Assembly (NCBI GenBank): GCA_963718895.1
Contig: CAVRAG010000004.1
Span: 256,001-320,000, forward strand
Source of the DNA: an uncultured Nitrososphaerota archaeon
GTDB taxonomy: Archaea; Thermoproteota; Nitrososphaeria; Nitrososphaerales; Gagatemarchaeaceae
Length of the DNA: 64,000 bases
Direction of reading: 5' to 3'
Numbering within the stretch: the stretch's first letter is position 1; each line of letters starts with the position of its first letter. The notes beneath the pieces are model-generated. The model was not told the origin of the DNA, searched no databases, and was given only the letters and a program-made list of their open reading frames with translations. Shown here piece by piece: positions 12,634 through 45,042 of this stretch. The position numbers and the translations under genes are program-made.

Positions 12634-12649
12634 AGGCGTAATGAACCCC
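12634..12649 (-). repeat. Inverted motif A abutting rpl10e fragment
   Basis: aggcgtaatgaacccc. Confidence 0.7.
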
Positions 12650-12836
12650 AACACGGGAACTTATATCCTCCGCGAGAACAAGATGATCGCCACCGCAGGC
12701 GCAGACAGGCTCCAGGAGGGGATGAGGAAGGCCTTCGGCAAGCCTATAGGTCTGGCCGCCCGTGTGGACATCGGCTCCACGATACTCGAGCTCCAGGTCA
12801 AGACGGCGGACCTCCAGCTGGGCAATGAACGCTCTC
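12650..12836 (+). pseudogene. Displaced internal fragment of rpl10e (ILRENKM...DLQLG)
   Basis: ~53 codons identical in protein to the resident gene, with synonymous DNA changes; a frameshift follows. Confidence 0.92.
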
Positions 12837-12922
12837 ACACTGCTTCGAAGAGACGATGAACGAGCTTGGTCGCCTCGATTTTGCTCACAAGATGTATATG
12901 TCTGGGACACCCAGACACTACC

Positions 12923-13513
12923 ATGTCATCGATGCGTGACTCGCAGTTTCGCAGGCCTGACATCGGCACGATTGGGGCAAGCCTGCTCGTCATGGTGGGC
13001 TTCGCCGTCTACCTTGCCGGACGCTACTTGGGGTCACTGCCTGGGTACCAGTACAACGGGCCGATACCCCCTGATATCGCCTACTCCATCATGGGCTTCT
13101 ATTCCGCCATCGTCGGCATCGTAATCTTGACTGCCAGGTTCCTCTGGCAGGTGTTCGCGCTCCCGGCCCGGGGGAGGATTGCGCTGCTGGCAGGATGGTC
13201 GCTTGTGATAGCAGGGCTGGTCGCCATGCCCACTGGCGCTCTTCAGGAGACCACCTGCTCCAACTGCTACTTCAACCTGAACGGCTCGTTTGTAATCTTC
13301 TGGGCCGGGGCCGTCGCCCTTCCTGCCGGCCTGACCGTAGTGGCATCCGTCCTCCTCGCGTCGCAGTCGCGGCCTCCCGGCCACAAGCAGCTTGTCCGTA
13401 TCGCGCTCGCCGCGGTGGTGATCATCCTGGCGGGTGTCACTCTCTGGACTGCCTTCGAAGCCTATTCCGCATATCTGAGCTACACCAGCTTACGTTTCAA
13501 CCTAGCGCTCTAG
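12923..13513 (+). CDS. Multi-pass membrane protein
   Basis: About 5 hydrophobic segments, CSNC loop; start inferred. Confidence 0.6.
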   Translation: MSSMRDSQFRRPDIGTIGASLLVMVGFAVYLAGRYLGSLPGYQYNGPIPPDIAYSIMGFYSAIVGIVILTARFLWQVFALPARGRIALLAGWSLVIAGLVAMPTGALQETTCSNCYFNLNGSFVIFWAGAVALPAGLTVVASVLLASQSRPPGHKQLVRIALAAVVIILAGVTLWTAFEAYSAYLSYTSLRFNLAL

Positions 13514-13550
13514 ACCGGACGACCCGAAGACGGCACCCAAGTACAGAGGT

Positions 13551-15155
13551 TCATTGCGTCTCCGCCGTGATCAGAACGTTGACTGGGTCTTCCCGGGTTC
13601 GTTTAGCACTCGATGGGTCAGTCAGCTCGCGAGATGGGAGAACGCGACCTACCAGATCATTGAGCAGGTTCGTGTCTCTGAGTATGATCTGCGCCGTCTG
13701 GATTCCTGAGACGAGGACGCCGTACACGCCGCCCCCTGGCTGGGTCCAGTGGCCAGAAAGGTAGAGACCACGTATCGGTGTCTCGTGGGGCATCCTGCCC
13801 AGTCCCACTTGAGCGGGGGTAGGCTCCCAGCCATAGATTGCACCTGACAGGTTCAGGGTGTACCGTTCCATGGTCCTCGGCGAAGCACCCTCGGCGAAGA
13901 GTGTGTGTTCGTGCAGTCCTGGGAAGAGCGTCTCCAGCTCTTTCACTATCAGCGCTGAATATCGTGCTTTCTTCTCTCTCCAGGAGCCCTCAATCTCGTA
14001 GGGGATCAGCGAGGTGGCTATGATGATGTGCTCGCCGGGGGGAGCCAGAGATGGGTCGATGAGGGTCGGAATGTCCACTCCCAGCATTGCGGGAGTCCCG
14101 TCCTGAATCATCCTGTACGTCTCATCGTGGTCCCACGTCTTGTAGAGAAACGTCTCGTGCGACGCTCCGAGCTTCCTCAGGTCGAGGTCGGTCGCAAGGA
14201 AGAGCACGAAAGCGGAGACGGATGGCGTCATGCTGTGAATCTTGCTAACGAAGCGTGTTGGGAGTTCATTTACGCCGACGAGTTCTTCGAACGTCTGCAC
14301 GGGGTCTGCGTTCGAGATCACCAGTTCGGCCTCTATCCGCTGGCCGTTCTCCAGGACGATCCCATTTACGGCTCCCTCGTGAACGATTATCCTCCTCACG
14401 CTGCTCAACAACATCACCTCGCCCTTGCACCTCCTGATGGCCTCCACCAAGGCGTTCGCGAGGTTCTGGAAGGTCCCCCGGCAGTAGAACGCGCCCCCGT
14501 CCATGAAGCTCATGAACATGGCGGACCAGTACAGGAACGAGATCTTCGAGGGAGGGAGGCCGAGGTAGGGCCACAGAGTCGCGAAGAGCGCCTTGGCCTT
14601 CGGGTCGGCCAGGTGCTCGTCCATCACCTGCTGCAGCGTCGCGTTGCGATACTTGTACAGGACCGGCAAGTTGCTCGGCGTCCGGAGCAGGTCGAAGATG
14701 GATGGCTTGGAGGGGAACCTCCGGACCTCCTCGTCAATCTGGGCGCAGAGCTCGAGGAGCTTCAAGAAACCTCCCTCCTCTTCGGGGAACTGGACCGCAA
14801 GGGCCCGGACGAACTCCTCCTCTCCCGTCGGGACGTCGACCCTGACCCCTGGGAAGATGGCGGTGTAGAACGGAGAAGCCCGGAGGAACTCGCAGAGTTC
14901 CCTGACCCCGAGCGTGCTGAGAAGGTTGTCGACAAGACCGCCCTCGCATCCGCCCGTGAGATGTACCGCCGCATCGAAGTGGTACCTCTTCAGCTGGAAT
15001 GACTGGGCATACCCTCCGGCACGGTCGTGCCTCTCTATCACGAGGACCTTCTTTCCGTTCTTGGCGAGCAGGGCCGCAGCCGTGAGCCCGCCGATTCCGC
15101 TGCCAATGACGATGACGTCGTATCTCTGCTCGCGCGATTCCCTTAGTATGGTCAT
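13551..15155 (-). CDS. Phytoene desaturase/CrtI-family FAD-dependent oxidoreductase
   Basis: YDVIVIGSGIGGL, ERHDRAGG, GAIYGW, LYLSGHWTQPGGGV. Confidence 0.88.
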   Translation of the reverse strand: MTILRESREQRYDVIVIGSGIGGLTAAALLAKNGKKVLVIERHDRAGGYAQSFQLKRYHFDAAVHLTGGCEGGLVDNLLSTLGVRELCEFLRASPFYTAIFPGVRVDVPTGEEEFVRALAVQFPEEEGGFLKLLELCAQIDEEVRRFPSKPSIFDLLRTPSNLPVLYKYRNATLQQVMDEHLADPKAKALFATLWPYLGLPPSKISFLYWSAMFMSFMDGGAFYCRGTFQNLANALVEAIRRCKGEVMLLSSVRRIIVHEGAVNGIVLENGQRIEAELVISNADPVQTFEELVGVNELPTRFVSKIHSMTPSVSAFVLFLATDLDLRKLGASHETFLYKTWDHDETYRMIQDGTPAMLGVDIPTLIDPSLAPPGEHIIIATSLIPYEIEGSWREKKARYSALIVKELETLFPGLHEHTLFAEGASPRTMERYTLNLSGAIYGWEPTPAQVGLGRMPHETPIRGLYLSGHWTQPGGGVYGVLVSGIQTAQIILRDTNLLNDLVGRVLPSRELTDPSSAKRTREDPVNVLITAETQ

Positions 15156-15299
15156 ATCGGACGATGGATGCAGCGAAGGGCACCCTACATCTTGGTTGCT
15201 CAACACGGACGATGTGACCTCAACACCCGTGTTGACGCTGGGAGGCTCTGTGCCGACCAAGGTTTAAGATTCGCGCCATCATGGACGGGGTGACAGCGC

Positions 15300-16049
15300 A
15301 TGCAAGAGACCGGCGAACTGATGTTTCTTTTGTCGAGCGCGGACAGGTTGAGGCTGCTCGAGGTGCTCCGAGAGGAGAAACTCAGAACGAGCAGGTTGTC
15401 GTCGAAGCTCTCCATGACGGTCCAGGAGACGTCCAGGCAGCTCTCTCGCCTGGAGGCGGCGAGCCTGGTCGAGAGGGACTCGCAGGGCCTCTACAGCCTC
15501 ACCGGCTACGGGACGGTCGTGCTGAAGCTCATACCATCGTTCGACTTTCTAGTCCACCGCAAAGAGTACCTCCTCTCCCACGACCTCTCGTTCATCCCCC
15601 CGGAGTTCGTAGAGAGGATAGGCGAGCTGGCGAAGAACGAATACAGGGCGACGGTGGGGTCGGTCCTCGACCACTTCGAGCAGGTGATGAGCGAGGCCCG
15701 CGAGTACGTCTGGCTGATGGCCGACCAGACTCTGATGGTGGACTCGATCGCCATGAAGCTGCTCGACGACGGTCCGGTGACGTGGAGGATAATCATCCCT
15801 GCTGCCGTCACCAAGGAGGAGGACTACCGGCTTCCGCCCAGCGATTTGAGGGGAAAGGTCGAGCTGGGCCTGGTCGAAGACGTCAGGATGGGGATGTCGC
15901 TCAACGAGACGCTGGCGGGCGTCACCCTCCCCGACAAGGGCGGGAAAGTGGATTTCGACAGAGGACTTCGCAGCAGCGATCCAGACTTCCACAGGTGGTC
16001 CAGAGACCTCTTTCTTTTCAACTGGAGCAAGTCGAAGAAGCTCCTCTGA
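15300..16049 (+). CDS. ArsR-type HTH plus DUF1724/TrmB-like transcriptional regulator
   Basis: LSSADRLRLL HTH; SSDPDFHRWSRDLF..W; divergent from oxidoreductase. Confidence 0.78.
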   Translation: MQETGELMFLLSSADRLRLLEVLREEKLRTSRLSSKLSMTVQETSRQLSRLEAASLVERDSQGLYSLTGYGTVVLKLIPSFDFLVHRKEYLLSHDLSFIPPEFVERIGELAKNEYRATVGSVLDHFEQVMSEAREYVWLMADQTLMVDSIAMKLLDDGPVTWRIIIPAAVTKEEDYRLPPSDLRGKVELGLVEDVRMGMSLNETLAGVTLPDKGGKVDFDRGLRSSDPDFHRWSRDLFLFNWSKSKKLL

Positions 16050-16099
16050 CCTCCTTGTCTGGCAAGCCTAGTACCAGCGCGAGACCAAAAGATAATCCC

Positions 16100-16222
16100 G
16101 GGTTCATTGAGCCTCCGCCGGTCCACCCTATCCAGGTTCGTCAGCTATTGTAGGTGAGCTGAGGTGGGTATTCCATCTGCTCTCCGCGCTTCTACGTGCG
16201 AACCGCGCCGGGCCCCGAGGCC
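16100..16222 (+). repeat. A-C repeat block
   Basis: Near-identical to 7568-7690. Confidence 0.92.
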
Positions 16223-16321
16223 GAAACCTCGACCTTGGCAGTGCGCTACCTCCTTTCTCCCAGTTCACACTCCGTCCCGACCGTGGAAGTATGCGATTTG
16301 AATGCCGCTCAATCCAAACAC

Positions 16322-16753
16322 CTAGTCTGCGATCTTCGGACTAAACTTCCGAGGATCCACCCTCGTGAGTCCTGGCACCCTGTCGTATACTTCGTCTGTG
16401 GACAGGATCGTCCTGTCCGAATCCTGATTCAGCGCAGTCGCCGCGTAAATCGCATCGAAGAGGCCTGTGACCTTGAACGACTTCATGATGGATTGTGCCG
16501 CCAGCAGGACCTCTGCCGTAACCGGAAGGATGGAGAGACCATCGATCCCCGCGATTTCGGCCTGCTTGCCAAGCACCGCCGCCTTATCGAATCCGAAATC
16601 CTCCAAGACATAATAGAGTTCGATGAGCACGGCCGCTGAGGTGTTCAGCTTCAGCTTGTTCCGTCGCAGCGATTCGAAGATGGGGTCGGCGTACTGCTTC
16701 AACCAGTCGGTCTTCTTCGAGTACGCCACGAAGAGGTCCGATTCGATGATCAT
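16322..16753 (-). CDS. vapC: PIN-domain (VapC-like) toxin
   Basis: IIESDLFVA, FDAIYAATA, LSTDEVYD. Confidence 0.85.
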   Translation of the reverse strand: MIIESDLFVAYSKKTDWLKQYADPIFESLRRNKLKLNTSAAVLIELYYVLEDFGFDKAAVLGKQAEIAGIDGLSILPVTAEVLLAAQSIMKSFKVTGLFDAIYAATALNQDSDRTILSTDEVYDRVPGLTRVDPRKFSPKIAD

Positions 16754-16983
16754 CTCTGTCGTCGCCTCGTTGCGCGCGCTCTGACCTCTTCGGCAAGCTT
16801 TCTCTCCGCCCGCTCCTTGGCCGACTTTCCTGTCACCTTCGTGTCCGACTCAACCGGCGCTCTCGCTATCGGAATCACCATGTACGAGTCGCCCATGTGG
16901 ATTACCAGCGCCCTGTCTGCCTCTATCCGCATCTCCTTCGGGATGGTGACCCGTCCACGTGCGTCAATCTCGACTACCGACAT
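16750..16983 (-). CDS. AbrB/MazE-family antitoxin
   Basis: VEIDARGRVTIPKEMR. Confidence 0.85.
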   Translation of the reverse strand: MSVVEIDARGRVTIPKEMRIEADRALVIHMGDSYMVIPIARAPVESDTKVTGKSAKERAERKLAEEVRARATRRRQR

Positions 16984-17152
16984 TAGCCCAAAAACGGGGA
17001 CTGCGCCCATATTTATCATTTGTGGGTAGAAATGAACTATTGCCCACGGAGCGATTTTTGGACCGGGGATCTCCGCCTGACCAGCCACGGCCAGCATGAA
17101 AGTTAGCCCATCCAGCAATCCCAACTCGGTCTGAGGGCTCTTGTTCAATGAG

Positions 17153-17275
17153 CTCCGGGCTTTTGCGTGCGAACCGCGTTAGGCCCCGAGGCCTCTCCAT
17201 CCGTCCGAGCTGCGTCTTGTCCTGGATGCGGAAGAGGCCTGAAGCCATGAATAGGGTTCATTGCGCCTCAGCCGG
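17153..17275 (+). repeat. C-to-A imperfect hairpin (attC-like), copy 2
   Basis: gtgcgaacc...aggcctctccatcc...ggatgcggaagaggcct...gggttcattgcgcc. Confidence 0.85.
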
Positions 17276-17283
17276 AGCATGCC

Positions 17284-17765
17284 TCAAGCCGTGGAGGCCG
17301 TGGAAGAACCTGACGCCATGGTTAATGGGCCAGATTCAGACTGGATGTAGTTCGACAGAGACGCAAGACACCCAGTCGCCTGCAAGGTGGGCTCCGGTAC
17401 CACGACCCAGACTGTTCCATTGGTCACGTACATGACAACCCAGTCAGGATACGTCTGACCGTTCATGTAATCGAGGACGGTCTCTGAGTAGTTCTGAACG
17501 GCTTGGGCAGACGCTCTATCGAAGACTTGTAGGCCGCCCTGGCTTGAATTTCTGAGAAGCTGGCTCGCGGAGGGCAGGTTCGGGCATGAGGAACTCACCA
17601 CACTGGAGGGCAAAAAATTATCGTGCCTGGTGAGGAGGCTGAGCGAGTCACGGTCGTCGCAGCACCGAAGTAGGACGCGGCAAAGACGCCAGCACCGATT
17701 ACCACCCCGGCTATGATAACGGCCACGGCCAGGCGAGTGCAACTTCGAGTTGGTGGGGCGTTCAT
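17284..17765 (-). pseudogene. Membrane-anchored protein, frameshifted (probably at T6 run ~17612)
   Basis: N-terminus MNAPPTRSCTRLAVAVIIAGVVIGAG is homologous to 57398; continues in another frame. Confidence 0.6.
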
Positions 17766-17835
17766 TCAGTAAGGACTTCGAAAGCCTTCGAGGGGCTCAT
17801 TGTTATCGATAGTTATTTCCGAATACCGCATCTCG

Positions 17836-18418
17836 CTACTTTCTGAATAGCCGGAACCGAACGAGCGCGTAGACGTAGACGGGTAGCGTGAACGCGACCG
17901 CGCTGACCCCGATGGCTCGAAAGGCGGCGAAGTAGAAGCCGGCGGCGTCCAAGAGGGGCGCTATGCCGACGACCCACATTGAAAGGGGCAATGAGGCCTT
18001 TGGCATAGAAGAAGACGCCGAACAGCGCCCCTGTGGCAAGGAGCACGGTCGCGCAGGCGACCAGCGAGTACAGGGTCCTCTTCCGCACCGCGAGAGCAGA
18101 CGCGATGAACTTCATGATCTGGTACGAGATTATCGGAGAGGAAATCAGCAGGGCCAGCATCACCGAGGCCGTCACGTAAATCTCGGTCGGCACCCCCGGG
18201 CTCCCAGCGATAAGGGTCCAACCGGCCGGCAGGACCTCGCTCTTTATGCCCGAGACGAATAGTGAGACGAGTGGGGAATAGGAGCCGCCTGAAGTCAGCA
18301 TCAGCACAGGGTTGGGTATCAAGAGGAGCGCCGCGAGGATCGCCGAGAATGCAAGGAAGGGCGCCCTGAATGTACTGAACGAGCCGATCTGTTCAGCGAC
18401 CCAAGGTCGCGAGTTCAT
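17836..18418 (-). pseudogene. Truncated TatC-like membrane protein, frameshift ~18000
   Basis: LPAGWTLI..P, SSPIISYQIMKFI, GALFGVF, FTLPV..ALVR resemble TatC TM1-4. Confidence 0.55.
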
Positions 18419-18921: not shown

Positions 18922-18994
18922 GAATCCCGCCCAACGACGGTCTTGGAGCTCTGGGGCATGTCAGACCAATTCGCAGCCCGCGACAGCAATTCCC

Positions 18995-19015
18995 GATTAA
19001 TAGTTATGTCCGAAC
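18995..19015 (-). promoter_or_regulatory. Motif B
   Basis: gttcggacataactattaatc. Confidence 0.7.
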
Positions 19016-22276: not shown

Positions 22277-22299
22277 GTGATTAATAGTTTTGTCCGAAC
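22277..22299 (-). promoter_or_regulatory. Motif B
   Basis: gttcggacaaaactattaatcac. Confidence 0.8.
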
Positions 22300-22324: not shown

Positions 22325-22448
22325 CCCCAGCTTTTGGGGGCGAACCACGCCGGGGCGCCGGGGCCCTCTCCCTCCGTCCGAGCTGGGTCTTGTTCTAGAT
22401 GCGGAAGAGACCTGAAGCCATGCAAAGGGGTCATTGCGCCTCCGCCGG
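22325..22448 (+). repeat. C-to-A imperfect hairpin, copy 3 (more degenerate)
   Basis: gcgaaccacgccgggg...gatgcggaagagacctgaagcc...ggggtcattgcgcctccgccgg. Confidence 0.8.
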
Positions 22449-22497
22449 TGCACTTCATCAGCGCGTTGTTCTACGCTCAGCGGCGGCCAATCAGCCT

Positions 22498-23003: not shown

Positions 23004-23123
23004 AGTTCATCCTGACTTCGTCGGGCACTTCATCCAGGTAAATCAGCTATGGCAGGAGGGCCGAGGTGGGTACTCCAATTGCTCTCCGGCTTTTACGTGC
23101 GAACCCCGCCGCGCCCCGATGCC
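23004..23123 (+). repeat. A-C repeat block (diverged)
   Basis: atccaggtaaatcagctat...ctctccggcttttacgtgcgaacc. Confidence 0.8.
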
Positions 23124-23134: not shown

Positions 23135-23395
23135 TCACCGCAAAAGCTGGCTCAGGTCGAGGATCTCGACTGCCACCGCTTGATCGCCGTGGTCTTCGTA
23201 GAAGAAGACTGCCAATCCGTCCTTTGATGGCTCCCCGACCGGCTTCTCCACGTGTCTGAACCTGAGGTACAGGTCGTCGTGTTCGCCGTAATCCACGGCC
23301 AGAACGGTCCTGGGGAGCTTCACCTTGTATCTCTGCTCCAGCTTCGACAGTATCTTCCTCAGGTCCAAGTCCAAGATTGTCGTTCTGCTCGTCAT
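23135..23395 (-). CDS. DUF2283-like putative antitoxin
   Basis: DYGEHDDLYLRF...AVEILD. Confidence 0.65.
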   Translation of the reverse strand: MTSRTTILDLDLRKILSKLEQRYKVKLPRTVLAVDYGEHDDLYLRFRHVEKPVGEPSKDGLAVFFYEDHGDQAVAVEILDLSQLLR

Positions 23396-23700
23396 TGTGC
23401 CCAGTACCTCCTGTTCTTCCTCTTCTCGTTGATTATGAATGCCGTCTTAATTAAGCCTCTATCTGCTTCTGCGACTCTGTAGATCACGACGAGGAAATGG
23501 CTCTTGTCGATGCGCTTCAAAGCGTGGCACCCGCCGCGCTCGTCTTTGTGCAGCTCATCAGGGTCGGATACCGCCTGCATCAATACGCTCGGGTCGGTCC
23601 CCACCTCCGGGTGCCTGAATCGCACGTGGAGCCAGTCGTCTCTCGTCAGAGTGATCTTCTTCCCGTCTGGGGTTGTTGCGACCGCGGGAAGGCCTTCCAA
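23392..23700 (-). CDS. BECR/RelE-like putative ribonuclease toxin
   Basis: ITLT..DWLHV..RHPEV, LVVIY, IKTAF; coupled to DUF2283-like gene. Confidence 0.6.
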   Translation of the reverse strand: MEGLPAVATTPDGKKITLTRDDWLHVRFRHPEVGTDPSVLMQAVSDPDELHKDERGGCHALKRIDKSHFLVVIYRVAEADRGLIKTAFIINEKRKNRRYWAQ

Positions 23701-29651: not shown

Positions 29652-29878
29652 CTAGGGGTCTGCAGAACTTTCAGTAGTCTTGTTAATCTTGGATAAAGAA
29701 AGAAGGACATGCCACGGATAGGGTCCATTGCGTTTCCCGGAAACTGGTGTAGAACGTGGGGTGGTCCTAGAGCCAGCGACTCGTCCCAACTCAGCCTGCG
29801 TTGTTGGCCATTCGATTAGACACCCGGCGAACTCAACCCAAACAGATGCCGATGAGGGTAGCATTCGGAAGGCTGCTG

Positions 29879-30734: not shown

Positions 30735-32812
30735 TTGAACGTCAGCTACGCCGTCCCAGCCCTGTTTCTAGCGATCGTCGCGCTCTTCGTCGTTGGCGCG
30801 CTGCTGCCGCTCTTGCTCAGGGATGCGAGGCGTGCGACCATCGCCGCGTTCGTGCCGGCGGCCGTCGCCTCCGCGCTGACGGTGGCGCTCTCGGTCCTGG
30901 TATTGTCCTCGGGAGCCGTGGTCCTGTTCTCATCTCCTCTCGCCGCGCCCGCACCCTCAATCGGGATCACGTTCTACATCGACGGCGTCGCCGCCTTCTT
31001 CATGCTGATTATCGGGCTCGTCGCGGCAGCCGTATCCGTCTACTCGCTGGGCTACAGCGGCGCGTCTGGCGGAGGGCACAGCGGCAAGTCCCTCGGGCTG
31101 CTGCTCAACGTCTTCGTCCTGTCGATGATCCTGGTGACAGCCACGGACAACGTGTTCTCTTTCCTGTTGTTCTGGGAGCTCATGTCGCTTACCTCGTTCC
31201 TTCTGGTCATCCACGACGACGAGAAGCCGGCCAACCTCAAGTCGGGGATCACTTACCTTGTCATGACGCATGTCGGCACCGCGCTCATCACGGCCGCATT
31301 TCTCGTCCTCTACTTCCAGACCGGGAGCCTCTCGTTCGACGTGTTCAGGAACTCCGCCGGTCAGCTCGCCCCCCTCACCAAGGACGCCGTCTTCGTCCTG
31401 GCGCTGGCTCGGCTTCGGCACCAAGGCTGGGCTGGTCCCTATGCACATCTGGCTCCCCAAGGCGCATCCCTCCGCCCCGAGCAACGTCTCCGCCCTCATG
31501 TCGGGGGTGATGCTGAAGGTGGCCATCTACGGGCTGGTCAGGGTAACGCTGGACTTCGTCGTCCCGAGCTCCCCAGGAGACGCCTGGCTCGGCCTGCTCA
31601 TGGTGGGAGCCGGGGCCACCTCCGCGCTGGTCGGGGTCCTCTACGCTGCCGTAGAGCACGACATCAAGCGCGCCCTTGCGTACCACAGCGTAGAGAACAT
31701 CGGGATCATCGTCCTGGGTCTCGGGCTCACGGTGGTCTTCATGTCGTATGGGCTCGCAACTCTGGCAGCCCTCGCGCTGCTCGCCAGCATGTACCACTCG
31801 CTCAACCACGCGGTCTTCAAGGGGCTCCTGTTCATGGGGGCCGGGTCGGTCGTGGCCAGGACCGGTAACGCCGACATGAATCTGATGGGCGGACTGGCGA
31901 AGAGGATGCCGTGGACCGCCGCGTTCTTCCTCGTCGGGTCCATAGCCATCGCAGGTCTCCCTCCGCTCAACGGATTCGTCAGCGAGTGGCTCACGATGCA
32001 GGCGCTGCTCTCGTCATACCAGGTGCCCAACCAGGCGCTGCAGGTCTCGATCGGCTTCGCCAGCATCGCCTTCGCGCTGACCCTCGGGTTGGCTCTGGCC
32101 ACATTCGTCAAACTATTCGGAATCTCTTTCCTGTCGCGGCCGCGGTCCGGAGAAGCCGAGCGGGCCACCGAGGTCCCCCGAACGATGATCGGCGGCATGG
32201 CCGTCGGCGGGCGTGCTCTGTGTCGTGCTGGGCGTGCTGCCGTTCTTGGCGACGTCCGCCATCGCGTCGGCCTTCAATCTGAACCTGGGGCTGACCTCCC
32301 CGTACTCCGCGCTCGGTCCCCTCGCCGTGGGTTACACCGCAAACGGCCTGAGCTCCGTCAGCAGCCTCTCGATGCCGACGGTGCTGATTCTCACCGGGTC
32401 GGTAGGTGCTGCGCTCTTCGGCTTCGTGGCCCTCGCCGGCTCCGGACGGAAGCCGGTCGTTCGACCGTACCCGACATGGGAGGGTGGTTTCGGTCCACTC
32501 AGCGAGAGGACCGAGTACACCGCCACTTCGCTCTCCCAGCCCATCCGCACCGCGTTCAAGGCGTTCTACAGGCCGCACACGAGCATCCATCGCGAGTACA
32601 ACGGCTCAAATCGCATGGTCACGAGGTCGGTGAGCGTCGTCTCCGAGACCAGGGAGATATTCGAGGACTACCTCTACTCGCCGATCGTCAGCGGGACCCT
32701 GTTCGTCCTCGACAAGGTGCGAAGGATCCAGACGGGCAAGGTGAACTCCTACCTCCTCTACATGATGATAGCGACTGTCTCACTGCTGCTACTGGCGGTG
32801 CTCGAGCAATGA
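30735..32812 (+). pseudogene. hyfB: HyfB/EhrA-like antiporter subunit (NuoL/MrpA family), two +1 frameshifts (~31408, ~32208)
   Basis: FWELMSL, KAGLVPMHIWLPKAH, LAYHSVEN, GLPPLNGF, IQTGKVNSYL found across three frames. Confidence 0.8.
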
Positions 32813-33783
32813 TGGTCTACGACTTCGCCCTGAGCGCCGGTCCTGTGGAGGTCGCAGTCATCGGGATTCTGCAGGCTGCCGGCATATTCGCCCTCGCGCC
32901 CCTGCTGACGGGCATCATGCGCAAGGTCAAGGCGAAGACCCAGAAGAGGGTCGGGGTGAGTGTCATCCAGCCCTACTATGACCTGCTGAAGCTCCTGAAG
33001 AAGGACGAGGTTGTCTCCGAGCACGCCTCCTGGATCTTCTCCTGGGCGCCGTGGGTCGTCGCAGCCTCGACCATGGCCGCGGCGCTCTTCGTCCCCGTCT
33101 TCGTCCCGTTCAGCCCCGTCAGCTCCGCGGGAGACATCCTGGTCGTGTTGGGCCTGTTCGCCCTCGCGCGCTTCTTCACCATGCTCGCCGGGATCGACAC
33201 TGCCAGCGCGTTCGGTGGCATCGGAGTCAGCCGGGAGATGATGATGTCCTCGCTGGCAGAGCCAGGCCTGTTCCTCACCGTCTTCGTCGTGTCCCTCACC
33301 TTTGGCGGGACGAACCTCACCAGCCTCGTGGGAGCTGCAGCGGTGTCCGGGGTTACCATCGCCCCGAGCCTGCTCTTCGGGCTCATCGCGTTCTTCATCA
33401 TAGCGCTGGCCGAGACGGGGAGGCTGCCGTTCGACAACCCGGCCACCCATCTCGAACTGACCATGGTCCACGAGGCCATGGTGCTCGAGTACTCTGGGAG
33501 GGGTCTGGCCCTCATCCAGTGGTCCCAGTCGATCAAACAGCTGCTCCTGCTCGGGCTCATGGTGGACCTGTTCCTGCCGATCGGGATGCCCGCATCCATA
33601 GACTCGGGCCTGCCTCTCCTAGGCCTCGGCGCCGGCGCCGTCGTCTTCAAGGTGGTCCTCCTCGCGGCGGGCGTCTCCTACCTTGAGACCCGCGTGGCCA
33701 AGTGGAGGCTGTTCAGGCTGCCGGACCTGTTCACGATGGCCATCGCGAGCGCGATGGTCGGGATGGTGCTGTTCTACCTATGA
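32809..33783 (+). CDS. hyfC: HyfC/HycD (NuoH-like) membrane subunit
   Basis: QPYYDLLKLL, ETGRLPFDNP.THLELTMVHEAM. Confidence 0.88.
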   Translation: MMVYDFALSAGPVEVAVIGILQAAGIFALAPLLTGIMRKVKAKTQKRVGVSVIQPYYDLLKLLKKDEVVSEHASWIFSWAPWVVAASTMAAALFVPVFVPFSPVSSAGDILVVLGLFALARFFTMLAGIDTASAFGGIGVSREMMMSSLAEPGLFLTVFVVSLTFGGTNLTSLVGAAAVSGVTIAPSLLFGLIAFFIIALAETGRLPFDNPATHLELTMVHEAMVLEYSGRGLALIQWSQSIKQLLLLGLMVDLFLPIGMPASIDSGLPLLGLGAGAVVFKVVLLAAGVSYLETRVAKWRLFRLPDLFTMAIASAMVGMVLFYL

Positions 33784-33797
33784 TTGGTGAGATGTAG

Positions 33798-34469
33798 TTG
33801 CAGATAGGACAACCCGACATAGTCGCGTTCTCCTCGGTGGCTCTCCTTGTCTCGACCTTCGGCGTGGTCGTCCGACGGAGCTTCGCGGGCTGGCTGAGCG
33901 CCTACCGGTACCAGTCGGTGGTCCTCGCCGGCTCGACCGGGCTCATCGCCTACGCGACGGGCGTCTGGGAGATATACGCGGCGGCCGTCCTCACCCTGCT
34001 GATCAAGGCCATCGTGATTCCGAGGCTGCTGGTCCGGGTCACAGAGGGGGTGAATGACGAGTTCAAGATCGAAGCGAACCCGTACGTGAGTATAAGGCTC
34101 TCCGTCTTGGTCTCGGCCCTCTTGGTCGCCCTCTCCTACGCCCTCGTCCAGGAGACCCTGCCGTCAGCGGGGCTGGACGCCCTGGCCGCGGCCTACCTGC
34201 CAATCTCGCTCTCCCTCTTCTTCATCGGGCTCTTCGTCATGGTCAGCAGGAGGATGGCACTCAACCAGGTGGTCGGCCTCCTCATCATCGAGAACGGCCT
34301 CTTCCTCTTCACCACGGCGCTGACGAGCGGCGTCTCCCTCATAATCGAGGTCGGGATCCTGGCCGACATCCTGGTCGGCGTGATGATCTCCGTTCTGCTC
34401 CTAATCAGGATGACCCGGACCTACGACACTCTCGACATCGGCCGTCTGGAGAAGCTCAAGGATGATTGA
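33798..34469 (+). CDS. hyfE: HyfE membrane subunit
   Basis: KAIVIP, QVVGLLIIENG; position in operon. Confidence 0.85.
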   Translation: MQIGQPDIVAFSSVALLVSTFGVVVRRSFAGWLSAYRYQSVVLAGSTGLIAYATGVWEIYAAAVLTLLIKAIVIPRLLVRVTEGVNDEFKIEANPYVSIRLSVLVSALLVALSYALVQETLPSAGLDALAAAYLPISLSLFFIGLFVMVSRRMALNQVVGLLIIENGLFLFTTALTSGVSLIIEVGILADILVGVMISVLLLIRMTRTYDTLDIGRLEKLKDD

Positions 34470-34475
34470 TCGGTC

Positions 34476-36029
34476 GTGTGGTGGTCGAACTTGCTGACCG
34501 TCGCTGGTCTGGTCCTCCCGTCGGGCTGGGGGGCCGTCCTTCTCACCATCATCTTGACCCCTGCCGTCTCGGCCGTGCTGGTGACCCTCACGCACAGGAA
34601 GAGGTGGGCCGAGGCCATCACGCTCGCCTCCGTAATGCTGGTGGGCCTCCAGGCCCTAGGGTTGGTAGCGGGCGTAATCGTTGGCAGGCAGGTCTCCGCC
34701 TTCGGCGAGATCCTGTACCTCGACGCGTTCGGCGCCCTGATCCTGATTCCGATAGCAGGCGTCGGATTCGTCGCCGCCCTCTACTCCATCAACTACATGG
34801 GGAGGCAGTACGACCGCGGCATCGTCGACGACCGGCACATAGTCAGGTACTACCAGGGATTCAACGGGTTCATGCTCACCATGCTCGTCGTCCCGCTTGC
34901 GAACGACATGGGGCTCATGTGGGTCGCAATCGAGGCGACCACTCTCGTCTCCGTCTTCATGATAATGCTCTACACGACCGAGGGGGCCATCGAGGCCGCC
35001 TGGAAGTACCTGACGATCGCCACGGTGGGGCTGTCCCTCGCCCTGCTCGGCATAGTCCTCTTCTCGTACGCGAACACCTCGGCATCGCCCTCGGCCTCAG
35101 GGATGGACTGGACGAGCATGGTCGCCAACTCGGCACTCCTCAACCCGGGGATCGTCAAGGTTGCCTATGTCTTCGTCCTTGTGGGCCTTGGAACGAAGGC
35201 CGGCCTCGCCCCTATGCACACGTGGCTCCCGGACGCCCACGGAGAGGCCCCGACCCCCGTCAGCGCGCTGCTCTCAGGCGTCCTACTGAACTGCGCCATC
35301 TACGGCGTGCTGAGGTTCTATATCGTAGCGTCCGGCACGCTGGGACCGGCATTCCCAGGCCAGCTGCTCATCCTGCTCGGCCTGCTTTCCATGGGCATAG
35401 CGGCGGCATCCATCTACTTCCAGAAAGACATGAAGAGGATGCTAGCGTACTCGAGTGTCGAGCACATGGGGATAGTCTCACTGGCGGTGGGCTTTGGAGG
35501 CTTTCTGGGGCTCTTCGCCGCCCTGCTCCACATAATCAACCACGCCATTGCGAAGCCCCTGATGTTCTTCGCGAGCGGCACGGTGAGCCAGAGGTACGGG
35601 ACCAAGGTGATGGCAGAAATCAAGGGGATCATCAGGGTCATGCCGGTCACGGGCGCCATGCTCCTCCTCGGAGGCCTGGCCATAGCCGGGATGCCCCCGT
35701 TCAACGTATTCCTGAGCGAGTTCCTCGTGATGACGGATGGATTCGGCACGGGACAGTTCTTGATCACCCCGATAATGATCATCCTCCTCGTGGTCGTCTT
35801 CGCGGGGTTCTTGCGGCACCTCGTGCCTATGGTGTTCGGGAACCCGGCCACCGGGAAGGCGGTCCCCTCCGAGAAGGGTTTGGGAACCGACGGCATGGGG
35901 GTGCTCGCGGTGGCCCCGATGCTAATCCTGGCGTCGCTGGTGATAGTCCTCGGATTCTTTGTCCCCCAGCCTCTGCAGACCCTCATCCGCGACGCGACGC
36001 AGGTGTTCAGCCAGGGGGCGGCATCCTAG
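34476..36029 (+). CDS. hyfF: HyfF antiporter-like subunit
   Basis: WVAIEATT, EAAWKY, HTWLPDAH.EAP, KRMLAYSS.EH. Confidence 0.88.
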   Translation: MWWSNLLTVAGLVLPSGWGAVLLTIILTPAVSAVLVTLTHRKRWAEAITLASVMLVGLQALGLVAGVIVGRQVSAFGEILYLDAFGALILIPIAGVGFVAALYSINYMGRQYDRGIVDDRHIVRYYQGFNGFMLTMLVVPLANDMGLMWVAIEATTLVSVFMIMLYTTEGAIEAAWKYLTIATVGLSLALLGIVLFSYANTSASPSASGMDWTSMVANSALLNPGIVKVAYVFVLVGLGTKAGLAPMHTWLPDAHGEAPTPVSALLSGVLLNCAIYGVLRFYIVASGTLGPAFPGQLLILLGLLSMGIAAASIYFQKDMKRMLAYSSVEHMGIVSLAVGFGGFLGLFAALLHIINHAIAKPLMFFASGTVSQRYGTKVMAEIKGIIRVMPVTGAMLLLGGLAIAGMPPFNVFLSEFLVMTDGFGTGQFLITPIMIILLVVVFAGFLRHLVPMVFGNPATGKAVPSEKGLGTDGMGVLAVAPMLILASLVIVLGFFVPQPLQTLIRDATQVFSQGAAS

Positions 36030-37696
36030 TGGCGGGGCAGACAGGGGTCGCTGGCTGCGAGGCGAAGCTGCGCGCCCGATTCACGATGGGGACGAATTCC
36101 ATTCGGCTGCTAAACGGAAACGAACTTCACTTCAGGATTAGTAGGAGGGAAGAGCTCCCGGACGTGTGCGCCTACGTGTACGATGAACTGAAAGGCGTCC
36201 TGGCGACGGTCGTCTGTTCCGACGAGAGGCGCCTCAGTGGAGAGTTCGTCCTCAGGTACGCCTTCGGCATCGGCGGTGAGGACCTCTTCATCGTGGTCGA
36301 GGCGGGGGTCGAGCAGGGTCACCCCGACTCGCCTTCCTCCTTCCCGAGCGTGGCGACCCGTCTGCCGGCCGCGACCCTCTATGAGCGGGAGGTTAGGGAC
36401 ATGTTCGGCCTTGTGCCAGAGGGCCATCCGGACGTGAGGCCGATGGTGCTTCACGAACAATGGCCCCACCGCGCGCATCCCCTGAGGAAGGACTTCGAGA
36501 TGGGCACCAAAGTAGGCAGGGTCACGGACCGTCCATACGAGTTCCTCAGGGTGGACGGAGAGGGCGTCTCCGAGATCCCGGTAGGCCCAGTCCACGCGGG
36601 GATAATCGAGCCCGGCCACTTCAGGTTCAGCACTCTCGGCGACACCATAGTCAACCTGGAGACGCGACTCTACTACACGCACAGGGGGGTCGAGAAGCTA
36701 TCGGAGTCGATGAAGCTGGACCATATCCTCCTTGTCAGCGAGCGAATATCCGGCGACGAGGCGGTGGCGAACTCGACGGCCTACTGCCAGGCCATCGAGA
36801 AGATCGCTGGAGTGACCCCACCACGAAGGGCGCTCCAGATTAGGGCCGTCTGCGCAGAGATGGAACGCATGTACAACCACATCGGCACGGTTGCAGGACT
36901 CTCGACCGATGTGGGGTTCGCCTACGGCTCCGCCAGGCTCAGCATCTTGAAGGAGAGGATGATGCGGCTGAACGAAGAGGTTGCGGGGAGCCGGCTCCTC
37001 TTCGGCGTCAACAGGCTGGGTGGGGTTGGCGTAGACCTGACCGAGGAGAAGGCCGGGCGAGTGCTTGCCGAGGTCGACGCAGTGCTGGGAGATTTCAAGC
37101 GTGTGGTGTCCGTCCTGAGGAACGATTCGTCAGTCATGGACAGGTTGAGGGGAACAGGGGCGATATCCTCCGCCGTCGCCCTGGAGTTGGGTCTGGTGGG
37201 GGTCGCTGCGAGAGCGTCGGGCGTGGACATCGACGTGAGGAGAGACCATCCCTACGGCGCCTACCGCTCTCTTCGTGTCGACTCGCACCACGACACCGGG
37301 GAGCGCGCGGCCCACTACGAGACCGAGATGAAGAGGAGAAGGGGAGACGTGCTTGCGCGCTTTGAGGTGAGGGTCGAGGAGGTCGACAACTCGGCAGCGG
37401 TCGTGAGAGAAGTGCTGCAGGACCTCGACGGTGGGCGGGAGCTAGTGGTCCCTCTAGCGAAGGACGCGCTCAAACCCTACGCCCACGCACTGGGCTATGC
37501 GGAGTCCCACAGGGGCCAGACCGTCCACTGGGCGATGATCGGGGAAGACCGGGACTCGCTCTTCCGCTACAAGGTGAGGACGGCGTCGTTCGCCAACTGG
37601 CCGGCGATAGAGACAGCTGTGCTCAATGACATAGTCGCTGATTTCCCTCTCGTGAACAAGAGCTTGGACCTGTCCTACGCAGGGAACGACCTGTGA
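36029..37696 (+). CDS. hyfG: HyfG/EhrL large subunit (NuoC+D-like) lacking NiFe cysteines
   Basis: YEREVRDMFG, GPVHAGIIEPGHFRF, ERISGD (no CxxC), NKSLDLSYAGNDL (no DPC..C). Confidence 0.85.
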   Translation: MAGQTGVAGCEAKLRARFTMGTNSIRLLNGNELHFRISRREELPDVCAYVYDELKGVLATVVCSDERRLSGEFVLRYAFGIGGEDLFIVVEAGVEQGHPDSPSSFPSVATRLPAATLYEREVRDMFGLVPEGHPDVRPMVLHEQWPHRAHPLRKDFEMGTKVGRVTDRPYEFLRVDGEGVSEIPVGPVHAGIIEPGHFRFSTLGDTIVNLETRLYYTHRGVEKLSESMKLDHILLVSERISGDEAVANSTAYCQAIEKIAGVTPPRRALQIRAVCAEMERMYNHIGTVAGLSTDVGFAYGSARLSILKERMMRLNEEVAGSRLLFGVNRLGGVGVDLTEEKAGRVLAEVDAVLGDFKRVVSVLRNDSSVMDRLRGTGAISSAVALELGLVGVAARASGVDIDVRRDHPYGAYRSLRVDSHHDTGERAAHYETEMKRRRGDVLARFEVRVEEVDNSAAVVREVLQDLDGGRELVVPLAKDALKPYAHALGYAESHRGQTVHWAMIGEDRDSLFRYKVRTASFANWPAIETAVLNDIVADFPLVNKSLDLSYAGNDL

Positions 37697-38514
37697 TTGA
37701 CATGGACAAGTCTAGAGACATCCTCAGCAATGCGGTCGAGACCGACAGGGACGTACTCAACGGGGAAAGGTCGGTCTCAGGCTTTCGCGGAGACGTGTCG
37801 CTGGTGCCGCAGTCACCTGGCTTTGTAGCAGACCTTGAACTGTACGGGCAGCTGAAGAAAGTCTGCGCACCAAATGCGATTGCGGAGATTCCGGGCGAAC
37901 TCGGCCCCCAGCTTACACTCGACAAGGGCAGGTGCATAATGTGTGGGATGTGCAAGCAGGTCGCGCCCCAGCTAATCGTTGTCTCTGAGCACTTCGCCGC
38001 GCCCGTGAGAAGACAAAGAGAGCTCGTCGTCGCACAGATACCGGAGCCTCCTGACGGCGGCACCCGGCTCCAGCCCGATGAGATAGGGAGACAGCTGAAG
38101 GAGAAGGTGGTGCAGGCGCTCGGGAGATCGCTGGCGGTAAGGGAGGTAGATGCGGGCTCCTGCAATGGGTGCGAGGTCGAGGTCTCTGCGCTTAACAACC
38201 CGGTCTACGATGTCGAGAGATTCGGCGTGCACTTCGTAGCCTCTCCGCGCCATGCGGACGTCCTGTTGGTCACCGGGGTAGGTTCCAGGAACATGGAACT
38301 CGCCCTGAAGAGGGCGTTCGAGGCTACGCCGGACCCGAAGGTCGTTGTCGCTGCGGGAGCCTGCGCCTGTTCGGGAGGGTTGTTTGGGGATACGTATGCC
38401 ACAACAGGTGGGGTCGGAGGGATTGTGCCAGTTGATGTGTTCGTCCCCGGGTGCCCTCCGAGGCCTGAAGCGTTGCTGTATGGGCTACTCCTCGCGGTCG
38501 ATAGAATCCAGTAG
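37693..38514 (+). CDS. hyfI: HyfI/EhrS small subunit (NuoB-like) fused to N-terminal ferredoxin-like region
   Basis: CIMCGMC, GSCNGCEVE, SPRHAD, GACACSGG, PGCPP. Confidence 0.88.
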   Translation: MIDMDKSRDILSNAVETDRDVLNGERSVSGFRGDVSLVPQSPGFVADLELYGQLKKVCAPNAIAEIPGELGPQLTLDKGRCIMCGMCKQVAPQLIVVSEHFAAPVRRQRELVVAQIPEPPDGGTRLQPDEIGRQLKEKVVQALGRSLAVREVDAGSCNGCEVEVSALNNPVYDVERFGVHFVASPRHADVLLVTGVGSRNMELALKRAFEATPDPKVVVAAGACACSGGLFGDTYATTGGVGGIVPVDVFVPGCPPRPEALLYGLLLAVDRIQ

Positions 38515-40665: not shown

Positions 40666-40785
40666 CGCATTCCACGCTGGAGAGAAGATGATTCAGTTGG
40701 GATATAATCCCTCGGTCGTTGTCCAACCGCCGTCGGATGTTCTGGTCTTTGATTCTACAGGACAAGAGTCGTTGTCTAAGGTGAA

Positions 40786-40809
40786 GGGGTTCATTGCGCC
40801 TCCGCCGGG
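40786..40809 (+). repeat. Motif A immediately after a minus-strand stop
   Basis: ggggttcattgcgcctccgccggg. Confidence 0.85.
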
Positions 40810-40815
40810 GCATCT

Positions 40816-41079
40816 TCACCAGTGAGGGTACGCACAGTTCCAGACGGAGTTCGACGTCAAAGACGGTTCTGGAAGACCGACTCCGCTGCCGCTGGGAACT
40901 TGGAGAAAATATCCGCCTACCGCGGCTCCGCACTGGAAGAGCGCGAACGAGGGTGAGACCCAGCCGATGTCCTGCGCGCCCGAACCTGCGTTCCTTCCGA
41001 CGGTCTGTACGAACGGGACAAAGATGAAGACGGCTATCACGATGACCGCGACAATTCCCCAGAGACGCCGGCTTCGCAT
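40816..41079 (-). CDS. Small single-TM protein (VP-SY family)
   Basis: FIFVPFV...VSPSFALFQCG; motif B variant at 41100-41122. Confidence 0.65.
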   Translation of the reverse strand: MRSRRLWGIVAVIVIAVFIFVPFVQTVGRNAGSGAQDIGWVSPSFALFQCGAAVGGYFLQVPSGSGVGLPEPSLTSNSVWNCAYPHW

Positions 41080-41154: not shown

Positions 41155-41201
41155 GATGCCTAAGAAAGGCATGCCACGCGTGGGGTTAGTTGCACCTCCG
41201 C
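41155..41201 (+). repeat. Motif A with upstream arm (diverged)
   Basis: gatgcctaagaaaggcatgccacgcgtggggttagttgcacctccgc. Confidence 0.65.
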
Positions 41202-41257
41202 AAGGGTATGCAACACAGTCGCCGCGTTGCTCATCCTTGAGCACCTGTTCCGCCGTA

Positions 41258-41813: not shown

Positions 41814-41937
41814 TGATTAATAGTTTTGTCCGAACCGCGGCCGGCCCCGAGGCCGGAGCCAAGCCGTGCTCTTTCAACCCCAACATTATGATGAAATGCC
41901 CGGGCGGAGGTGCGATTCACCCTATGCGCATGGCACG
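41814..41937. repeat. Hybrid B|C site plus linker plus inverted motif A
   Basis: tgattaatagttttgtccgaac|cgcggccggccccgaggcc; remainder matches 10338-10420. Confidence 0.85.
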
Positions 41938-43313: not shown

Positions 43314-43389
43314 CCGGTCGAGAAGGCGCATTGAACCCAACACGAAAACTCATACCCTAGGGAGAACAAGATGATCGTCACCGCCGGCG
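43314..43389 (+). pseudogene. Inverted motif A joined to decayed rpl10e fragment
   Basis: aaggcgcattgaaccc|aacacgaaaactcataccctagggagaacaagatgatcgtcaccgccggcg. Confidence 0.75.
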
Positions 43390-44051: not shown

Positions 44052-44155
44052 ACCGTGACTATAGTTATAGCCATAGCCATAGATAAATCTTGAGGAGGAA
44101 GCTCCTCACGCGACTCTTCAGAGCCAGGGTTCGTCTGGCCTGTTTACTGGCTACC

Positions 44156-44189
44156 CCAGGCGGAGGCGCTATGAACCCTATACATGGCA
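44156..44189 (-). repeat. Inverted motif A
   Basis: ccaggcggaggcgctatgaaccctatacatggca. Confidence 0.75.
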
Positions 44190-44190
44190 T

Positions 44191-44622
44191 CTACTTTTCG
44201 CTATCTGACTCCTTCATTCTTATCCAGGTACGCTTGACTTCGGTGAAGTGAGGGTCGTCGGTGACGCATGAAACGCGGAGCCGCTTCGCGGTCGCCATGA
44301 TTAGGGAATCAGCCATCGGAATCCTCAGCCTGTGGCTGATCCTAGCGCCTTCCGCGGCAATCTCGGCGTCGACATCCATGATATCGAACTCATTCTCCAT
44401 GGTCGTGACCCTCACATCAGCGACCGACATGTCTTCGGACTCAATCGTCTGCTTGTAGACCTCGTAGATGCTGATCGAGGAGACGTAGGTCGTATCTGCC
44501 CGGTCGTAGATGGCTCTCAGTTCTCTTACGGTTCGCCGATCTTTGGATCTGAAGATGGCCCAGAAGTACCTTGTCTCGAAGAGCACACTGCCCTCATCCC
44601 TCTTCTTGCCGCATGGCGTCAA
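44191..44622 (-). CDS. vapC: PIN-domain (VapC-like) toxin
   Basis: LFETRYF, MADSLIMATA, TDDPHF; true start probably ~44586. Confidence 0.85.
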   Translation of the reverse strand: MTPCGKKRDEGSVLFETRYFWAIFRSKDRRTVRELRAIYDRADTTYVSSISIYEVYKQTIESEDMSVADVRVTTMENEFDIMDVDAEIAAEGARISHRLRIPMADSLIMATAKRLRVSCVTDDPHFTEVKRTWIRMKESDSEK

Positions 44623-44818
44623 GGCGATCGAAGGCTTCTTTCACGTTCCCCTTGCTCGTCCCCGCCAAATCAAATACTGACGGGATTTTTGTGAATACCA
44701 CCTTGCCCTCCACAGCCTCAACCTTCAGCCTTGTTCCTTCCTCAATCCCCAGCTTCCTTCTCACGTCCACGGGGATCGTCGTCTGGCCTCTTCTCGTGAC
44801 CACGACCTCTTGAGCCAT
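44594..44818 (-). CDS. AbrB/MazE-family antitoxin
   Basis: VTRRGQTTIPVDVRRKLGIEEG. Confidence 0.9.
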   Translation of the reverse strand: MAQEVVVTRRGQTTIPVDVRRKLGIEEGTRLKVEAVEGKVVFTKIPSVFDLAGTSKGNVKEAFDRLDAMRQEEG

Positions 44819-44919
44819 GCATTCTGACATGGATTCCTACCTTAAAATGATTTCCTACCTATCCGTTAATCCTACTCCTGGTTTTTCTTGGCGTCTTCTC
44901 GATATGTTAGGGTGTCCCC

Positions 44920-45042
44920 CCGGCGGAGGCTCGATGAACCCCAACACGAGATCATACCTTCAGCGAGAACAAGATGATCGCCACGCAGGCGCAGACAGGC
45001 TCCCGGTTTTTTTACATGCGAACCGCGCCTTGCCCGGAGGCC
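44920..45042 (+). pseudogene. Inverted motif A plus rpl10e fragment plus motif C (collapsed unit)
   Basis: ccggcggaggctcgatgaacccc|aacacg...gagaacaagatgatcgccacgcaggcgcagacaggctcc|cggtttttttacatgcgaaccgcg. Confidence 0.85.

Follow-up and report, generated by a model that had tools for sequence, protein, structure and literature searches.

The ribosomal protein gene rpl10e (L10e/L16) in an uncultured archaeon of the Gagatemarchaeaceae is followed by an insert of 49.6 kb in which partial copies of the same gene recur. The window, that is, the whole stretch of 64,000 nt analysed here (contig CAVRAG010000004.1 of assembly GCA_963718895.1, positions 256,001-320,000), carries the intact resident gene near its left end and, beyond the insert, the diphthamide synthase gene dph2. 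The genome it comes from is designated G000 below, and its assembly is 80.5% complete. At three places in the insert, junctions a, b and c, a short sequence called motif A is joined to rpl10e at the same point of the gene, and all rpl10e-like partial copies lie in direct orientation with the intact gene (Table 1). Motif A duplicates the 3' strand of the processing stem of 23S rRNA, the sequence directly past the 23S 3' end. Three further species of the genus (G007, G002 and G013) have the composite junction behind rpl10e as well, and relatives outside the affected clade have the site empty. Orthologues of rpl10e are present in 25 of 31 related genomes.

The sequence GAGAACAAGATGATCG occurs in four exact copies in the window, at 2105 in the resident gene and at 12674, 43362 and 44965, all on the + strand; 0.05 copies are expected by chance and 0 of 100 shuffles reach four. 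TGAACCCCAACACG is exact at 12642 and 44935 (0.34 matches expected), and a third match at 63894 on the - strand, with 2 mismatches, is unrelated. The corresponding copy at 43332 reads TTGAACCCAACACG and escapes an ungapped search because one base is missing and TTG replaces ATG. The left arms begin at 12627, 43317 and 44910, and the distance from TGAACCC to GAGAAC is 32, 30 and 30 bases in the three junctions (after ...TGAACCC(C)AACACG). Each junction consists of a stem copy, about 10 nt resembling the rRNA trailer, and rpl10e from about codon 71 without codons 75-77. Thus junction a has ACTTAT-ATCCTCCGC-GAGAAC where the gene of the related genome G011 has ACTTAC-(9 nt)-ATCCTCCGC-GAGAAC. The fragment at junction a is in frame with the ATG of the motif, and its tblastn match spans 12665-12853. 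An earlier, sequence-only reading had described motif A joined to rpl10e three times over, and all three junctions are present as it described them. Motif A is clear in the copy at 44920 (E 5e-6) and degenerate in the other two. The proposal, in that reading, of a fixed att-like (attachment-site-like) boundary is largely borne out; within the resident gene the boundary falls near 2075-2080, since the likeness to rpl10e extends left of GAGAAC to about codon 71. A fifth copy of rpl10e, also partial and overlooked in that reading, lies at 6386-6618, where it closes a 4.1-kb cassette of ABC-transporter and helix-turn-helix genes.

The 60 nt of rpl10e just past the boundary open every partial copy and constitute a candidate att core. 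Third-codon-position identity is 65-95% in the 20 codons of this core against 49-75% in the 5' part of the gene, an excess seen in 12 of 12 comparisons with genus relatives, which are not independent because the species are related. The raised synonymous conservation of the core fits a site recognised by a protein.

The identity of motif A is evident from the rest of the genome. With up to 4 mismatches the motif, GGGTTCATTGCGCCTCCGCCGG, has 80 genomic copies, 12 on the contig of the window, 67 on contig C8 and 1 on C10. On C8, 74 copies at up to 5 mismatches extend over 126 kb (C8:1441758-1567973, loci L027 and L028) in one orientation, with 0 in reverse. They are spaced mostly 0.4-4 kb apart, the intervals holding one or two open reading frames (ORFs) each, and the - strand carries the longest ORF of 49 of the 73 intervals. 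On its right side the array ends at the rRNA operon itself, with 23S at C8:1568000-1572001 and 16S beside it (Rfam). On the rRNA strand the sequence reads ...CCCAACGTGTGGATGAAATGCC CCGGCGGAGGCGCAATGAACCC TACACATGGC..., the 3' strands first of 23S helix 1 and then of the processing stem. The complement of the motif sits in the 5' flank of the 23S gene, and pairing of the two flanks gives -71.1 kcal/mol versus -50.8 +/- 3.4 for 200 shuffles. Units of the array share a sharply bounded conserved core of about 55 nt, to which a varying amount of 23S sequence, from none to about 75 nt, is attached. The unit array of G007, about 60 kb long, and that of G058, a member of another genus, likewise start at the true 23S 3' end. 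Across the order the motif is present in 19 of 151 sampled genomes, G000 counted; among the other 150 it was found only in the Gagatemarchaeaceae-like family of Nitrososphaerales to which the window belongs (18 of 24 genomes, and 0 of 126 from 19 other families).

Other identities were considered for these sequences. A gene start (GGAGG, 5 nt, ATG) was rejected for motif A: ORFs reach 100 aa at 8 of 80 sites, ACG or other codons replace the ATG at many sites, and indels shift the frame among copies. The segments that follow motif A in some units, D7 and motif B, could not be shown to be further 23S sequence, a profile of six A-D7-B units matching the 23S end just at positions 3-47. No tRNA was found in the window by ARAGORN, and Rfam gave nothing there at E up to 1, which disposes of a tRNA or other known RNA as the target. 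An ancestral adjacency of rpl10e to the rRNA operon was likewise rejected, the two being 78-180 kb apart in 4 genomes.

Several features of the 23S arrays are recorded here in their own right. One 18.8-kb interval of the C8 array encodes products of 1587, 828 and 782 aa. In G058 (contig C4, 1066-32136) the units form two opposed blocks, on the - strand at 1066-18096 and on the + strand at 26570-32136, which suggests an inversion inside the array. The 23S match in G000 (L027:2001-6002) covers 4002 nt versus a model of 2987 nt, and an insertion of about 1 kb, possibly an intron, probably accounts for the difference; the excess is similar in G007 and G058.

The sites without insert define what preceded it. 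In five more distant members of the genus the stop codon of rpl10e overlaps the TTG start of dph2 by 4 nt, and at most about 40 nt separate the two genes in three genomes that belong to two other genera, the genes being contiguous in 8 of 8 genomes examined outside the affected clade (5 of the same genus, 3 of other genera). Being held in outlying genus members and in other genera, this adjacency is ancestral. In filled genomes the gap between the two genes is 1.8 kb (G010), 4.4 kb (G013), 7.7 kb (G011), 10.3 kb (G007) and 49.6 kb (G000); in G002, dph2 is absent from the 20 kb examined. An element of about 65 nt (...ACGAGAACCCTAATTAAGGGA...) upstream of dph2, within 51860-51951 of the window, is common to G011, G007, G013 and G010. 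It is probably a promoter gained on the splitting of the two-gene operon, and the conservation of this promoter-like region in all five filled genomes places the first split of rpl10e from dph2 before the clade.

In G007 the composite junction lies 3.3 kb behind the gene and reads GAAGGCGCAATGAACCC, 23 nt, then GAGAATAAGATG. In G002, 11 kb behind the gene, motif, linker, remnant and motif B follow one another in the same arrangement as at 44920, and in G013 a degenerate motif precedes the complete 3' part of rpl10e, up to the stop codon, 3.2 kb behind the resident gene. The sequence-only reading had staked its boundary on junctions in other genomes not falling at random, and they do not: the partial copies of all three species begin at the same point. 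The six left arms are alike in structure, and the DNA to their left is different in every copy. Since all six share the 23S-derived motif, the trailer of about 10 nt and the missing codons 75-77, the left arm has a single origin. Displaced fragments resemble most closely the gene of their own genome: copy a of G000 is 94.5% identical to its own gene (next best 89.0%) and the G013 copy 84.2% (next best 83.4%), and the displaced copy of G007 has the unusual codons AAT and ACCGCCGGC of its host gene.

Table 1. Features of the window at and downstream of rpl10e (positions in the window; A, 23S-type unit; A', degenerate 23S-type unit).
Feature	Position	Strand	Evidence or remark
rpl10e (ribosomal protein L10e/L16), resident, intact, 160 aa	1865-2347	+	Pfam PF00252 (Ribosomal_L16), E 3e-23
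Shared core opening every partial copy (GAGAACAAGATGATCGCCAC...), candidate att core	2105-2164	+	First 16 nt in four exact copies
Inserted region between rpl10e and dph2	2348-51951		49.6 kb; Pfam scans and empty sites in relatives
First A'-D7-B unit (A', then motif B)	2413-2533	+	66 nt past the rpl10e stop
Partial copy: last 44 nt of rpl10e and 186 nt downstream (A'-D7-B unit)	6386-6618	+	82% identity to 2304-2533
Full A-D7-B unit	7556-7690	-	23S-like sense on - strand
Full A-D7-B units, same polarity as 7556-7690	16100-16222, 23020-23123, 28048-28182	-	
A units, polarity of 7556-7690	13537-13567, 17242-17284, 22415-22472, 40782-40822, 41171-41221	-	
A unit, opposite polarity (23S-like sense +), as in the three junctions	10361-10419	+	E 6e-16
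A units, polarity of 10361-10419	41878-41933, 44149-44190	+	E 3e-6, 2e-10
Junction a, left arm: degenerate 23S-stem motif (AGGCGTAATGAACCC), trailer-like bases, then rpl10e-like ATCCTCCGC	12627-12673	+	
Junction a, displaced rpl10e fragment, codons 81-134	12674-12836	+	163 nt, 94.5% identity to 2105-2266
Junction b, left arm: degenerate motif, TTG and one base lost	43317-43361	+	
Junction b, rpl10e remnant	43362-43389	+	31 nt counted from 43359 (43359-43389), 90% identity
Junction c, left arm: clear 23S-stem unit (CCGGCGGAGGCTCGATGAACCC) and linker	44910-44964	+	Profile match 44948-44910, E 5e-6
Junction c, rpl10e remnant, joined directly to motif B (45013-45042)	44965-45006	+	44959-45006 = 49 nt, 92% identity
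Motif C (TGATTAATAGTTTTGTCCGAAC) copies	8935-8956, 10249-10270, 18994-19015, 22278-22299, 41814-41835, 50350-50371, others		
dph2 (diphthamide synthase), ancestral downstream neighbour of rpl10e	51952-52989	+	Pfam PF01866, E 3e-59

Besides the junctions, the window has at least 11 further 23S-type units, in both orientations. The A'-D7-B unit at 2413-2533 is absent from the empty-site genomes and is therefore inserted DNA. In both arrays most ORFs are on the strand where the unit reads rRNA-like, and stop codons adjoin the unit. Motif B (TACGTGCGAACCGCGCCGGGCCCCGAGGCC) has 15 copies in the window between 2504 and 45042, all on the + strand. It is nearly restricted to the rpl10e locus, with one other copy in G000 at C8:907985, and also occurs behind rpl10e in G007, G011, G001 and G002. 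Motif C, of 21-22 nt, has 45 genomic copies, of which 37 fall on the array contigs C4 and C8. At 32 of the 45 sites an ORF starts -5 to 60 nt (about 30-40 nt) downstream of the reverse complement of the motif, which looks like a shared cassette promoter. A promoter aimed at motif A was rejected, the reverse complement of motif C preceding ORFs on the other strand. Paralogues of cassettes in the window, at 77-90% identity, occur in the 23S array and in further regions that contain units (for example, 23141-23645 vs C8:1532041-1532544, 85%). The cargo of the insert according to Pfam comprises six PIN-domain proteins, HicA, a MazE-type antitoxin, an ABC transporter pair, several helix-turn-helix regulators, a CAAX protease, an amine oxidase and an Mrp/Mbh-like membrane complex. 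The last is encoded by a seven-kb cluster at 31270-38514 with NADH dehydrogenase and antiporter-type subunits, some apparently fused. Outside the insert, at 59903-61621, an ORF of 572 aa with a LAGLIDADG endonuclease domain in mid-protein lies beside PCNA and primase small subunit genes and may encode an intein-bearing replication protein.

The intact gene, the direct displaced fragments, the empty sites and the arrays of reused sites together point to integration into a target gene for which a replacement 3' part is supplied. The locus may have arisen by serial insertion of integrase-less cassettes whose arm consists of a 23S-derived unit and a captured 3' fragment of rpl10e, an explanation to which we give an even chance of being correct. 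The three junctions would then be attR-like right-hand scars of successive cassette insertions into the 3' half of rpl10e. The inserting elements would belong to a cassette family with an attachment unit copied from the 3' end of the 23S rRNA gene and its processing stem, and a sub-lineage from the 23S array would have gained a fragment of rpl10e, from about codon 71 to the gene end, and with it a second docking site. Recombination of the captured fragment, borne on a putative circular intermediate, with the chromosomal gene would insert the element and regenerate an intact gene from the host 5' part and an element-derived or hybrid 3' part. The previous 3' part would be moved to the far side, behind the 23S-derived arm of the element. 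Repeated insertions would drive older scars downstream and lead to their truncation (to 163, 31 and 49 nt), and 23S-type units within the inserted DNA could act as more docking sites, giving the 49.6 kb now between rpl10e and dph2. The A'-D7-B unit behind the resident gene matches what this model predicts for the arm of the newest element.

Catalysis would most likely be provided in trans by a tyrosine recombinase. A candidate of 473 aa (C8:1190962-1192383) lies at the left edge of a 26.7-kb element between direct 23S-type units (C8:1189536-1216205, locus L029), 1.4 kb from the unit, and is adjoined by a degenerate second recombinase copy. The family to which it belongs has a conserved C-terminal tail (...LLGAMANNG.KQKVI...), 9 matches in G000, and members in 40 of 61 genomes of the archaeal family, G000 counted; the distance from a homologue to a unit is 0.25 kb in G015 and 8.4 kb in G002. 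The candidate is no XerA equivalog: it scores 74.5 bits, and the cut-off is 220.

A number of observations weigh against serial insertion by such an enzyme. The Pfam-scanned ORFs of the window include no integrase, recombinase or transposase, no unit is near the candidate recombinase in 3 of 6 loci, and the candidate has no homologue in G007. PF00589 has one match in G007 and none in G058, though both have arrays. No excised circle and no attP-bearing plasmid or virus was found in a search of viral contigs, the rpl10e core having 0 matches in them. The unit pattern has 2 matches there, which are ascribed to chance because they lie inside phage structural genes at about 50% G+C. Two of the three remnants are just 31 and 49 nt long, and the one at 43362 has ACCGCCGGCG, as in the G007 gene and unlike that of G000. 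The units of the window face both ways, so that the insertion history is not a simple stack. One idiosyncratic deletion is shared by all left arms, as a single ancestral event would give, and the closeness of displaced fragments to the gene of their own genome would equally result from in-situ duplication or gene conversion.

The scarcity of PF00589 matches in G007 and G058, together with the lack of a recombinase among the scanned ORFs of the window, makes Campbell-type homologous insertion a serious rival. No dedicated recombinase would be involved: circles excised by homologous recombination between 23S-type units would insert into rpl10e or into units, the rpl10e 3' fragment would come from an imprecise excision, and the fixed breakpoint would be the edge of the captured fragment. 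The repeats, at 55-230 nt, are long enough for homologous recombination. Variation in the 23S length of the units (0 to ~75 nt) is what captured fragments setting the edges would produce, and the likeness of displaced fragments to the host gene agrees with the same process. The sharply bounded core of the units, however, suggests a protein-recognised site, as does the genus-wide synonymous conservation of the 60 nt past the rpl10e boundary, and 23S-type units flank an autonomous-looking element that carries a tyrosine recombinase. Homologous insertion is rated unlikely, if far from negligible. A lower probability still is given to one ancestral insertion of which all copies are later segmental duplications or rearrangements, kept alike by gene conversion, with a boundary that is not in active use. 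That the copies could descend from one ancestral junction had been allowed for in the sequence-only reading, and for the left arm, with its common linker and missing codons, a single origin holds. The conserved dph2 promoter region of the five filled genomes likewise makes the first split ancestral to the clade, and the data examined give no sign of recent movement. In four public soil runs parts of the window appear only as short, low-depth contigs, and the single joint seen, 1936 to 12674, is on a contig of <95% likeness that fits the uninterrupted gene of a relative. As an account of the whole, descent from one junction is disfavoured: the similarity of the copies ends at the unit edge and the flanking cargo is different in all six, the left arms of G000 are strongly diverged from one another, copies b and c pair off with the types of G007 and G002, respectively, and thereby suggest several lineages instead of local duplication, and insert size and content vary between species.

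Two known systems are far less probable as explanations. In a classical integron, or a cluster of attC sites lacking integron-integrases (CALIN), motif A would be attC and the arrays would be the work of an IntI integrase. The spacing, often 0.6-2 kb with one or two ORFs per unit, the many toxin-antitoxin cassettes and the co-oriented 23S array, with its 74 units and small cassettes between repeats over 126 kb, are as expected of integrons. The units, however, are without a hairpin (DNA-fold z-scores of -0.34 to +1.33 in 6 of 6 folds, both strands) and are copies of an rRNA gene end, and 0 of the 4 PF00589 loci of G000 are at an array end. Two of these recombinases, the candidate among them, score 27.6 (candidate) and 33.8 bits against the integron-integrase model TIGR02249, with its cut-off of 265; these scores cover two of the four loci, the other two, both degenerate, being left out. 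An integron is thus very improbable. Slighter still is the chance of a casposon, which would make motif A a terminal inverted repeat and have a casposase act at the rpl10e boundary, leaving a target-site duplication. The sequence-only reading had tentatively likened motif A to casposon ends on account of its G-run, and thaumarchaeal casposons do target 3' ends of protein genes according to the main text of PMC6563490. The likeness did not hold up: Cas1 (PF01867) has 0 matches in the whole genome, at 80.5% completeness, where the control matched 7 of 14 reference genomes; 74 of the 74 copies in the main array are direct repeats and none is inverted; gene sequence of 31-230 nt is duplicated in place of a short target-site duplication; and the motif is rRNA-flank sequence.

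The proposed serial insertion has its closest parallels in Islander-type islands at tRNA and tmRNA genes, whose regeneration of the target is described in PMC4383910, and in archaeal elements at protein genes. Common to these and to the present locus are a split gene for which a replacement 3' part is supplied, an intact gene and a direct displaced fragment at the two ends, and reuse of the site to give tandem arrays. In its main text, the survey of Thaumarchaeota by Krupovic et al. 2019 (PMC6563490) lists 14 insertions in the 3'-distal parts of protein genes, with sites reused in tandem. By comparison with the elements in that text, the present ones have a ribosomal protein gene and the 3' end of 23S rRNA as targets; the terms 'rRNA' and 'ribosomal protein' have 0 occurrences in it (supplementary tables not covered). 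The present elements further differ from Islander-type and archaeal ones in being without an integrase, in a duplicated stretch of up to about 250 nt, and in an attachment arm that is a composite of two different host genes. This composite arm, the usual 23S-tail attachment unit fused to a captured piece of rpl10e, is what is new here.

The tycheposon islands of Prochlorococcus, as portrayed in 10.1101/2020.12.28.424599, show repeated insertion at one gene, with newer elements pushing older ones inward, and share with the rpl10e locus the partial target-gene copies and degraded elements scattered through the island. Tycheposons target seven tRNA genes and mostly carry their own recombinase and replication modules, whereas the present system has units that derive from rRNA and cassettes, mostly of 0.4-4 kb, that are devoid of these modules, and one of its arrays has 74 units. 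With sedentary chromosomal integrons and CALINs (reported also in Archaea by Ghaly et al., 10.1101/2022.02.06.479319) the shared traits are long co-oriented arrays of small cassettes, richness in toxin-antitoxin genes and a conserved separating repeat, a likeness in outcome. Unlike them, the present arrays have no attC-type hairpin, no IntI and no attI by an integrase, and their repeat is the end of a host gene. Cis-mobilizable elements (CIMEs) of streptococci are integrase-less and att-flanked, and at the fda 3' end they accrete beside integrative and conjugative elements (ICEs), whose recombinase can mobilise them. The CIME system is bacterial, with few units and no composite arm, and in the present case mobilisation in trans is a proposal.

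A literature search directed at integration at the 23S 3' end, at rRNA-operon hotspots and at the family yielded no account of such a system (supplementary tables not covered). The genomic description of the Gagatemarchaeaceae (PMC10640624) uses none of the words mobile, integrase, island, toxin, 23S and repeat in its main text. A flexible-genome architecture of this kind is apparently undescribed in archaea. Taken more broadly, the arrays may represent a family-wide, super-integron-like capture system in Thaumarchaeota of the Gagatemarchaeaceae type, with the 23S-end unit as its attachment sequence, cassettes with their own promoters accumulating behind the rRNA operon, composite arms docking in essential genes such as rpl10e, and mobility through a trans-acting recombinase or host recombination. 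This wider view is tentative, and on the whole we think it more doubtful than probable.

Copies of the 23S tail and partial copies of rpl10e can serve as annotation markers that delimit the flexible genome in metagenome-assembled genomes of these archaea. If serial insertion is what built the locus, there would be two archaeal integration targets not reported before, one in the 3' processing stem of 23S rRNA and one inside rpl10e, and an attachment arm fused from two host genes would explain how an element family can acquire a new target. It would also suggest that, in a soil lineage, islands of 50-126 kb can be assembled from cassettes that lack an integrase.

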